Shown: piece by piece, positions 1 to 1,365 of the stretch
How positions within the stretch are numbered: the stretch's first letter is position 1
Layout: every line of letters starts with the position of its first letter
Source: an uncultured Planctomycetota bacterium
GTDB taxonomy: Bacteria > Planctomycetota > JBBTDB01
DNA: 64,000 bases
Assembly: GCA_964530615.1 (NCBI GenBank)
Contig: CAZHAR010000025.1
Span: 2,129-66,128 of the forward strand
Reading direction: 5' to 3'
Notes under the pieces: generated by a model
Seen by the model: the letters and a program-made list of their open reading frames with translations, nothing else
Databases searched by the model: none
What the model was told of the DNA's origin: nothing
Program-made: the position numbers and the translations under genes

Positions 1-460
1 ACTGAAGCTTATAATATTCATTTTTTATACTAAGTATTTCGTTACCTCCGTCTGTTATTACCATTCTCCAATTTGGATATGTTAGTTTCGAATGATATAG
101 ATCGGTCAACTCTGTTCTTATCTGTCTTTTTTGAATACATTTATTATCAGACGGCGGAGGAGAATAGGGTGCTTCGTCGGGACCCCTAGGATTAGCTTCT
201 TCCAAGCCAGGTTCAAAAGGAGGCTTAGGTTTTATTGGTGGTGAAGGAGGGAGGCGAGGAGGATGGTGCTGTACTGAACAGGATTGAATTTTTTGTTCGA
301 GAAAACGAATATAGGTGAGGAGCTCTTGACGCTCCCATTCGATAAATGGACGAGACTGCCCTTTTGTATGAACTCCAGAACTTGAACGAGACATTCCGTT
401 TCGGGCAATGTGCTGAACATTACCCTGCAGAGCGTGTGAAAATTGGTTTCGATTTGGCAT
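1..460 (-). CDS. Hypothetical protein, 3'-truncated by the window edge (at least 153 aa); last visible gene of the capsid-like operon
   Basis: My own translation from ATG at 460 gives MPNRNQFSHALQGNVQHIARNG...ELLTYIRFLEQKIQSC...PPRLPPSPPIKPKPP..., open to position 2 with no stop. It is missing from the ORF track, presumably because its stop lies outside the window. Confidence 0.75.
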   Translation of the reverse strand, partial: MPNRNQFSHALQGNVQHIARNGMSRSSSGVHTKGQSRPFIEWERQELLTYIRFLEQKIQSCSVQHHPPRLPPSPPIKPKPPFEPGLEEANPRGPDEAPYSPPPSDNKCIQKRQIRTELTDLYHSKLTYPNWRMVITDGGNEILSIKNEYYKLQ

Positions 461-480
461 AAAAATTTCTTTCTACGATA

Positions 481-520
481 GAAGTGGGTATTCTTTTCAC
501 TTTTTTTGAAGACCCACTCC
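481..520 (-). other. Intergenic stem-loop without a U-tract
   Basis: On the minus strand GGAGTGGGT (520-512) pairs with ACCCACTTC (489-481): 9 bp including one G-U, with an A-rich loop. Confidence 0.5.
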
Positions 521-528
521 TCAATAGG

Positions 529-1365
529 CTAAATATTTTTTTGTGTCCAAGCAGAAATTCCAGGGGTAATGCCGCCTGTGAAAAAAAGTCCTCCCAACGG
601 ATCTGGATTGTATCCCGGAGTATACGTCACTCCTGGAATCGGAATATTTGGATCCACTCCTTGAGGCAACCCGTCGTTATTAATAAGACTCGGAATTGAC
701 AAATACGAAGGCGTTCCTTCAGACGGAGTTTCACTGCCTCCTGGCGTTCCAGAATTTTGTTGATTTTCTGCATTTTGAGAGGAAGCATTTTCGCCTTGAT
801 TCTTTCCACAACAAGAGCAACAACCATTGGATTGGGAAGGCGGTGCGCACATTTGAGCGAACTGCTGTTCCAATAATTTCGCATAGTTACTGAGAGCTTC
901 TTGTCCTAAGGTATCGATTTCTGAAGGAAAATCGCTCAAAGACATCGAATCACTTCCTTGTTCGGTAGAAGTTGAATCCGTACGCCCTTGACGAGAACCT
1001 AATATTGTTGCTCCTTGCCTTCCTGCACTTTGAGAAAAACTGCTTGTCTGACTCAGTTCCGATTTTTTAGTTGAACGTGATTGACAAGCTAAACAACTTC
1101 CTGAAGATTTCTTTGCAGAGGAAGAAATTTTGTTTTGAGTTTTTTCTACAAAAGAAATAGGATTTCGAACTTTCTTGGCGACGCGCACTTTTCCCGGATA
1201 AAACGCTTGAACCGTATTGACTCCAAAAGGGTCAACAGCAAGAGAAGAAAGCGTCATAGGCTTGGCTCTTTGTTGGCTTTGCCGAGCTTTTAACTCCATT
1301 GCGTAAGCGGGATTGCCAACCTGAAGCGCGTTGACGGGCTTGGAAGAATAACGTCGTGTTTGCAT
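529..1365 (-). CDS. Low-complexity/disordered protein with a basic N-terminus, Cys clusters (CLAC, CCSCC) and a Pro/Gly-rich C-terminus; candidate cargo or scaffold
   Basis: 278-aa ORF. Its RBS TAAGGAG overlaps the stop codon of the upstream capsid gene. Composition is S/Q/K/G/P-rich. Confidence 0.75.
   Translation of the reverse strand: MQTRRYSSKPVNALQVGNPAYAMELKARQSQQRAKPMTLSSLAVDPFGVNTVQAFYPGKVRVAKKVRNPISFVEKTQNKISSSAKKSSGSCLACQSRSTKKSELSQTSSFSQSAGRQGATILGSRQGRTDSTSTEQGSDSMSLSDFPSEIDTLGQEALSNYAKLLEQQFAQMCAPPSQSNGCCSCCGKNQGENASSQNAENQQNSGTPGGSETPSEGTPSYLSIPSLINNDGLPQGVDPNIPIPGVTYTPGYNPDPLGGLFFTGGITPGISAWTQKNI

Follow-up and report, generated by a model that had tools for sequence, protein, structure and literature searches.

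HK97-type capsid-like genes of a groundwater planctomycete, a conserved short helix in two proteins encoded downstream, and an N-terminal module of capsid-adjacent proteins

The capsid-like gene cluster and its two helix-bearing proteins

The stretch of DNA analysed here (the window; 64,000 nucleotides (nt) of contig CAZHAR010000025.1, assembly GCA_964530615.1) comes from a groundwater Planctomycetota genome and carries, at its left end, a cluster of five genes, all on the minus strand and separated by gaps of 12-68 nt. From first to last, these encode a 143-amino-acid (aa) protein, two HK97-type major-capsid-like proteins (capsids A and B), a 278-aa protein and a 361-aa protein whose gene runs off the window (the edge protein), the latter length being shown by L001, a short contig from a metagenome, and by a cluster look-up. 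In what follows, L001-L018 are the contigs or loci fetched around homologues, P0002-P0028 are library proteins, and positions refer to the window unless a contig is named (Table 1). It had been predicted from the letters of the DNA that the 278-aa and edge proteins are both disordered and have in common a short helical motif, followed by Pro-rich sequence, that might target them to a shell or mediate their heterodimerisation (the original prediction). Translation of the minus strand places the motif in both proteins as predicted, coordinates included.

An AlphaFold2 model of the 278-aa protein, computed from its family alignment, is disordered (mean predicted local distance difference test score, pLDDT, of 44.6) apart from two helices, 19-32 and 155-173. 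The second of these is the predicted motif and has the top confidence of the whole protein (pLDDT 62-75), the rest outside the helices lying below 50. A word-indexed search with the 278-aa protein returned two homologues, P0002 and P0003, and three more came from a profile search among 1.8 billion representatives: P0025, which matches over the N-terminus only (E = 4e-14 in this whole-library search), and the remote P0026 and P0027. The 278 family, as we use the term, comprises the window protein, P0002, P0003, P0026 and P0027. All four homologues in the family keep the helix (ELADFVLNLEQKVAQSC, DLADYVLKLEKQVTQSC, ELADYVVELENTLSSAC and ALINYIQLLEKQYAQAC), with L158, L165, E166 and C173 invariant in the family. 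The Cys cluster downstream of the helix is conserved in the same four proteins as CCCC(T/N)C, its CC pair being invariant, and the C-terminal Y-[TV]-P-G-Y-[NK]-P is conserved in 5/5 278-type proteins. A CxxC pair (CLAC, 1084-1095, minus strand) also follows the N-terminal module described below, and reads CPAC, CPGC or CEQC in relatives (equivalents in L004, L008 and L016). Searches of Pfam, PHROGs and NCBIfam returned nothing for the 278-aa protein or for the downstream proteins of related loci.

The edge protein consists of a basic N-terminus of 41 residues, the helix, a 44-residue spacer that opens with His-His and has 36% Pro, and ~255 residues of ordinary composition. It has no Pfam, PHROG, NCBIfam, PDB or phage match, and a word-indexed search with it found itself only. 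A second edge-type protein is encoded on contig L013, the contig that carries P0027: its gene lies 24 nt downstream of the P0027 gene and its product reads ...TQWSRQELLDYARFLEQKIQACLAMQHHHQPQPRPPLPPP..., and the gene pair, 278-type then edge-type, thus recurs in a divergent contig. Similarity between the window and L013 edge-type proteins is limited to residues 30-66 (55% identity, E = 1e-8), where W-x-RQELL-x-Y-x-RFLEQKIQ-x-C is identical and C61 and H66 are invariant; the N-terminus of the L013 protein differs, and the ~90 residues available after its linker are not detectably similar to the window protein. At the DNA level, the helix region is the sole match between the window and L013 (70.7% over 350-262). 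Because the helix and the His/Pro stretch are the sole part conserved with L013, they behave as a conserved module on a variable body. In a variant strain recovered from two DNA runs, the edge gene is ~95% identical and the helix changes are the conservative E46D and one synonymous substitution. All seven helices (five 278-type, two edge-type) are amphipathic, with hydrophobic moments of 0.28-0.41, and neither the 278-aa nor the edge protein has a hydrophobic signal-like N-terminal stretch, so that a cytoplasmic location is likely for both.

Motif conservation, on which the original prediction depended, is therefore found in P0002, P0003, P0026 and P0027 on one side and in the L013 edge-type protein on the other. 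The predicted disorder holds for the 278-aa protein, whereas the edge protein, given its ~255 C-terminal residues of ordinary composition, is not simply disordered; conversely, the Pro-rich stretch after the helix is real in the edge protein, whereas the corresponding part of the 278-aa protein has 12% Pro and carries CCSCC instead.

Capsids A and B match PHROG 212 “major head protein” at E ~1e-11 (B: 1.6e-11), and hhalign places their family profile on HK97 capsid proteins that bear PF05065, with a probability of 97.8% (E = 1.3e-12). At ~320 aa they are shorter than these ~406-aa relatives and are without their N-terminal extension. No Pfam family matched either protein at E ≤ 0.1, and there was no usable PDB sequence match. 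Since an AlphaFold2 model of capsid B from 15 close sequences reached a mean pLDDT of 33.6, we infer the HK97 fold of the shell proteins from homology only. Capsid B has about 19 close relatives, all metagenomic; the closest named one is from a Planctomycetota metagenome-assembled genome, and most are from one groundwater site. A scan of JGI metagenomes gave two loci, and no capsid relative was found in GTDB species genomes (queried by single protein and by alignment), IMG/VR, INPHARED phages or PLSDB plasmids.

Table 1 Features of the five-gene cluster in window coordinates
Feature	Position	Strand	Description	Basis or remark
Edge gene, 5’ part	2..460	-	Start at 460; runs off left window end; full product 361 aa (P0028)	
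His-His and Pro-rich linker of edge protein	146..277	-	Residues 62-105; 36% Pro	Composition; QHH(H) and Pro run also in L013
Helix motif of edge protein	331-278	-	Residues 44-61, RQELLTYIRFLEQKIQSC	Translation; L013 conservation
278-aa gene	529..1365	-	N-terminal module, CxxC, Ser-rich linker, helix, CCSCC, Y-T-P-G-Y-N-P tail	
C-terminal motif of 278-aa protein	589..624	-	Residues 248-259, YTPGYNPDPLGG	
Cys cluster of 278-aa protein	808..822	-	CCSCC, residues 182-186, downstream of helix	
Helix motif of 278-aa protein	903-847	-	Residues 155-173, QEALSNYAKLLEQQFAQMC	Translation; AlphaFold2; conservation
N-terminal module of 278-aa protein	1171..1365	-	Residues 1-65	Hidden Markov model matches in related loci
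Capsid B	1378..2337	-	HK97-type major-capsid-like protein, 319 aa	PHROG 212; hhalign
Capsid A	2379..3362	-	HK97-type major-capsid-like protein, 327 aa	56% identical to B
143-aa protein	3379..3810	-	First cluster gene	Nearly identical in L004, L005, L012; two copies in L015
Promoter-like site	3869..3896	-	5’ of 143-aa gene	Best in search; 10/12 consensus positions

The N-terminal module, related loci and gene neighbourhood

The 278-aa protein starts with a second conserved element, the N-module (consensus ALQxGNPxYAME ... DPFGxxTxQAFYPG). The order 143-aa protein, capsid A, capsid B recurs in L004, L005, L012 and L015 with differing flanking genes, and the proteins encoded right behind related capsid genes differ strongly between L004 (357 aa), L008 (323 aa), L009/L010 (522 aa), L015 (236 and 501 aa) and L016-18 (305 aa). 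A hidden Markov model (HMM) of residues 1-65 matches the 501-aa protein of L015 (2e-11), the 323-aa protein of L008 (3e-11) and the 305-aa protein of L016-18 (4e-6), and more weakly the 357-aa protein of L004 (5e-4) and the 522-aa protein of L009/10 (5e-3, in repeated copies). The two L015 proteins share 75% identity up to residue 77 (E = 1e-36), beyond which they are unrelated. The helix is absent from the capsid-adjacent downstream proteins of L004, L008, L009/10, L015 and L016-18, and the same loci have no edge-type gene; edge-type proteins are seen next to helix-bearing 278-type proteins only. The edge protein itself gives no N-module HMM match at E ≤ 3. Because it recurs in otherwise unrelated proteins beside these capsid genes, the N-module is the likely shell contact and a better candidate for shell association than the helix.

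Comparison of the window with L002 shows a sharp breakpoint. From capsid B as far as roughly codon 70 in the 278-aa gene, near 1154, the two are 96.6% identical in DNA; past this breakpoint, there is no DNA similarity save 22 nt at YTPGYNP, which is also the sole remaining match in L003. Read contigs from two runs show the same kind of break, at 1187. The N-module therefore appears to travel with the capsid gene while the remainder is exchanged, which suggests a cassette-like replacement, between strains of the same site, of the part of the 278-aa protein behind the N-module.

Several related loci have features of their own. HExxH motifs (LAHEFCHT, LHEMIHV) are present in the N-module proteins of L015 (5381-6886, 501 aa) and L016 (3349-4266, 305 aa), suggesting metalloprotease-like clients that match no family. 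L009 (603-8235) and L016 (410-6593) have a single related capsid beside ParB-N-domain proteins, accompanied in L009 by a replication-initiator-like protein (PF10134, weak) and in L016 by a DUF4062 protein, and each looks like a plasmid-like or minimal virus-like element. The 522-aa protein of L009 is Glu/Lys-rich and coiled-coil-like, with two to three copies of a GNPY..M motif. In L008, a 426-aa reverse-transcriptase-like open reading frame (ORF; 1312-2592, minus strand) was assigned by eye to the group II intron type from its motifs; it and transposase-like ORFs, likewise identified by eye, stand right after the capsid-adjacent gene.

The window genes around the cluster are cellular (a PP2C phosphatase, a tetratricopeptide repeat (TPR) protein, Nramp, an aminotransferase, a Ser/Thr kinase-FGE-sulfatase fusion and a release factor), as are the surroundings of L004, L005, L012 and L015. 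Near the cluster, whose edge-gene side is bounded by the window end, there is no portal, terminase, protease or tail gene and no phage structural or packaging PHROG. The best explanation is that the cluster is chromosomal, non-phage and centred on two HK97-type shell paralogues. Metatranscriptome contigs from one run cover 207-408 and 1103-1460, weak evidence for expression in situ of both the 278-aa and edge genes. A literature search found no paper on this type of locus.

The 143-aa protein at the head of the cluster is far better conserved than the capsids downstream of it: homologues lie at 2463-2894 in L004, 7507-7938 in L005, and 316-762 and 838-1284 in L015, and the L004 and L005 capsids are 55-72% identical to capsid B. 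There are weak Ig-like (Caf1) hints at most for this protein and a PDB sequence search gave nothing usable; it might decorate the shell or act as its partner. Upstream of the promoter-like site, the AT-rich spacer contains a (TA)n run (3935-3952). The cassette of 143-aa, capsid A and capsid B genes is flanked by a 141-nt direct repeat (1324-1464 and 4380-4520, 95% identity), which comprises the 3’ end of capsid B, the 12-nt spacer and codons 1-14 of the 278-aa gene; the copy upstream of the 143-aa gene reads ...IDPTQFAL* then MQTRRYSSKPVNALKKQN..., with a stop soon after, and the same remnant is present in L012.

Resemblance of the two helices and its interpretation

As had been stated, the 278-aa and edge proteins show no evident similarity outside the helix, whether compared by BLASTP, Smith-Waterman or hhalign. 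The six-frame ORFs scanned with motifs and HMMs came from the window and from every fetched locus and amount to 178,300 residues, among which the consensus of the original prediction matches the 278-aa, edge and L013 edge-like proteins only. A 12-column pattern built from the five 278-family helices alone, with one deleted residue allowed, is matched at 9/12 columns by the window edge helix and at 10/12 by the L013 edge helix, and 0/2000 shuffles of either protein equal that. The columns L, aromatic, L-E and C, all invariant in the 278 helices, recur in both edge-type proteins. Alignment of the two families with hhalign gave one alignment, helix on helix (P = 0.006, probability 6%), and the profile tests overall give P of about 5e-4 to 6e-3. 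With an HMM of the 278 helix, no non-member outranks the L013 edge-like protein (E = 0.1), and the window edge protein comes in about third place (E = 1.3 with the window alone, 2.4-2.8 with the loci added); with an HMM of the edge helix, P0002 is second among the non-self matches (E = 0.3). The pattern proposed for both families is L-x-x-aromatic-aliphatic-x-x-L-E-[QKN]-[QKT]-hydrophobic-(x)-Q-x-C, then Cys/His ligand-type residues. It is probably real, although not provable by sequence statistics alone.

Two further candidates were considered. An “ALQ(V)GN” at both N-termini (NALQVGN in the 278-aa protein, HALQGN in the edge protein) is not claimed as a second common element, the N-module HMM giving no edge match (see above). 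A segment of the 702-aa TPR protein (5461-7569), encoded three genes upstream of the capsid cluster, reads YQFTLEQQFAQ between hydrophobic stretches and has LEQQFAQ and an aromatic residue in common with the 278-aa helix (YAKLLEQQFAQ). The segment served as a chance control, although the motif might be present here in a third copy.

Our preferred reading, to which we give a probability of about 0.35, is that the 278-aa protein is an adaptor and that its helix pairs with that of the edge protein. The N-module would be the general capsid-associated element and would contact the shell, and to this the helix would add a second interaction element, of narrower range, common to the 278-type protein and its downstream partner. 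On the 278-aa side, this would be an amphipathic helix of four to five turns, capped by Cys and followed by the Cys cluster; on the edge side, a Cys-capped helix followed by His-His, the Pro-rich spacer and the C-terminal domain. The two helices would pack together, the 278-aa protein carrying the edge protein along, and the terminal Cys residues with the nearby Cys and His residues could provide a common metal site or a covalent thiol link. In L013 the helix-bearing gene pair is not directly behind a capsid gene, and it is therefore argued that the two proteins belong together. Of the two roles first proposed for the motif, heterodimerisation is thus the better fit, ahead of a direct docking of the two helices to the shell, because the edge protein is without an N-module, because it is seen only beside helix-bearing 278-type proteins and because the L013 pair is off the capsid. 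The predicted role as a shell-targeting signal is only partly borne out: the helix is indeed conserved, but the element common to capsid-adjacent proteins is the N-module.

A number of results weigh against helix pairing. The pairwise similarity of the 278-aa and edge proteins is at chance level: their Smith-Waterman score is 30, against 35 +/- 5 for the shuffled 278-aa protein (172/200 shuffles reach 30), and the helix pair is absent from the top BLASTP segments. At E ≤ 3, the window 278-aa protein is missing from the matches of an edge-family HMM, and the TPR control (6507-6475, minus strand) equals the HMM score of the edge protein and matches 8/12 columns. The edge-type helices also have sub-threshold matches to Pfam DUF2281, so such helices are not unusual, and the helices of the two families are offset by a one-residue deletion, which places the Cys differently on the helix face. 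Co-occurrence of 278-type and edge-type genes rests on two loci, the L002, L003 and L014 contigs ending before the position of the second gene. The shell, too, is a matter of homology only. Shell formation, N-module contact and helix pairing would all have to hold, and each is inferred. Much of this is what would be expected if the resemblance were coincidental, the helices having separate roles, for example in self-association, and the edge protein being perhaps unrelated to the shell: HMM E-values of 0.1-2.8, an hhalign probability of 6%, a Smith-Waterman score no better than that of shuffles, an equally scoring TPR protein, DUF2281-like matches below threshold and an edge family of two known members. 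Coincidence accounts poorly, however, for the recurrence of all invariant 278-helix columns in both edge-type proteins with 0/2000 shuffles doing as well, for cross-matches at or near the top of the non-members in both directions, for gene adjacency in two divergent loci, and for helices that both end in Q-x-C and are then followed by metal-ligand-type residues. We regard it as doubtful, yet to be reckoned with.

It is unlikely, in our assessment, that both helices are copies of one docking signal for the same inner-face site on a shell of capsids A and B. Both are short, amphipathic and located in flexible regions, each is conserved and they are alike at conserved positions; two proteins with a common capsid-binding helix have a precedent (PMC5644958), and P0026 and P0027 keep the helix despite a degenerate N-module, P0026 being encoded behind a divergent capsid gene. 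However, the capsid-adjacent proteins of L004, L008, L009, L015 and L016 have the N-module and not the helix, the helix is internal rather than terminal, no capsid gene stands immediately before the L013 gene pair, and the cross-family similarity is marginal. A different possibility, compatible with pairing, is that what is conserved is a site for handling metal or sulfur, formed by the capping Cys with CCxCC (278-aa protein) or HH(H) (edge protein), the helix merely positioning the ligands. The invariance of C173 and the CC pair in the 278 family and of C61 and H66 in the edge pair would fit, as would the probable cytoplasmic location of both proteins, which have no signal-like start. Cytoplasmic Cys clusters usually bind metals. 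Moreover, encapsulin cargoes often handle iron or sulfur (PMC8346489). No metal-binding family matches, though, and the helix Cys is separated from the cluster by a variable distance of about 8 to about 40 residues, leaving this possibility improbable. Finally, the locus might be a decaying prophage remnant, in which case the downstream proteins would be relics of scaffold or internal head proteins that no longer serve a function. In favour of this, the capsids have phage major capsid proteins as homologues, the 141-nt direct repeat points to past rearrangement, and L009 and L016 have a related capsid beside ParB and replication-type genes. On the other hand, gene order and intact ORFs are found in at least five loci with different flanks and with capsids 55-77% identical; portal, terminase, protease and tail genes are absent nearby; IMG/VR, INPHARED and PLSDB hold no relatives; and the locus is apparently transcribed in situ. 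We reject this reading, which is very improbable, on the grounds of gene content and synteny.

Comparison with encapsulins and other HK97-fold systems

Encapsulins of Family 1 correspond to Linocin_M18 and those of Family 4 to DUF1884. Family 3 corresponds to PF05065; Family 1 cargoes carry C-terminal targeting peptides and Family 2 cargoes N-terminal disordered loading domains (PMC8346489). The locus is like encapsulin loci in having an HK97-type shell gene in a cellular operon and adjacent, long-disordered proteins with a common terminal module and differing bodies, and the logic of the N-module is comparable to that of the Family 2 N-terminal loading domains (PMC8346489). Of the features that define encapsulins, an HK97-fold shell protein is present by homology and phage genes are absent nearby, and the N-module, being common to diverse capsid-adjacent proteins, would fit the definition of a cargo-loading element. 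Unlike in encapsulins, no Pfam family that defines Families 1-4 matches capsid A or B, and the N-module is unrelated in sequence to known tags; nor does the helix behave as an encapsulin tag, since it is not the common module and was not found beyond the two families. The locus, known here from its genes alone, thus appears to work most like an encapsulin system, albeit one outside the sequence definition of Families 1-4. Two side-by-side shell paralogues (56% identity) recall the two-component Family 2B encapsulins (PMC12407261), from which the locus differs in that no cyclic nucleotide (cNMP)-binding insertion or sequence relation was detected and a 143-aa gene precedes the pair. A more elaborate proposal is that the locus represents a two-component HK97-type nanocompartment family with two-tier loading, in which N-module proteins would be primary clients and the edge protein a secondary client recruited through pairing of Cys-capped helices, possibly locked by metal or thiol; we put it forward as quite unlikely in its entirety.

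Outside the encapsulins, the closest parallel for the helices is the scaffolding protein of 80alpha and CpmB of SaPI1, which bind the capsid N-arm through a common C-terminal helix-and-hook (PMC5644958). There as here, flexible regions of two dissimilar proteins contain short amphipathic helices that resemble each other, and the proteins are encoded beside an HK97-fold capsid gene. The 80alpha/CpmB helix, however, is at the extreme C-terminus with an RIIK hook, whereas the present helices are internal (155-173 of 278 and 44-61 of 361), end in Q-x-C and have no hook; and where 80alpha and its satellite encode competing proteins, the present locus is without phage genes. Capsid genes without portal or tail genes are also typical of the tailless, portal-less small HK97-fold “viral entities” (bioRxiv 10.1101/2025.06.18.659913), which L009 and L016 resemble. 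Unlike these, the window locus lies in a syntenic, chromosomal, cellular neighbourhood and has no IMG/VR relatives. At the level of the helix alone, the edge-type helices match positions 13-30 of the Pfam DUF2281 (PF10047) profile, with E = 0.077 for the window and 0.0052 for L013, but at 14 bits (window edge) and 17.8 bits (L013), below the 26.5-bit gathering threshold; only the helix aligns, and the 278-aa protein has no match.

The N-module and its modular clients are a more informative result than the helix, and if the helix similarity proved to be chance, the N-module and the locus family would remain as the lasting result. If a shell forms, the locus would stand for a family of HK97-type compartments beyond the four encapsulin families described so far, with two shell paralogues, a conserved small partner and swappable clients, some of them HExxH protease-like in related loci. 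A shell-contact tag on the one hand and a client-to-client helix on the other would then offer two orthogonal handles for engineered cargo loading. More broadly, these planctomycete genes would in that event add a case to the question of how cells domesticate capsids.

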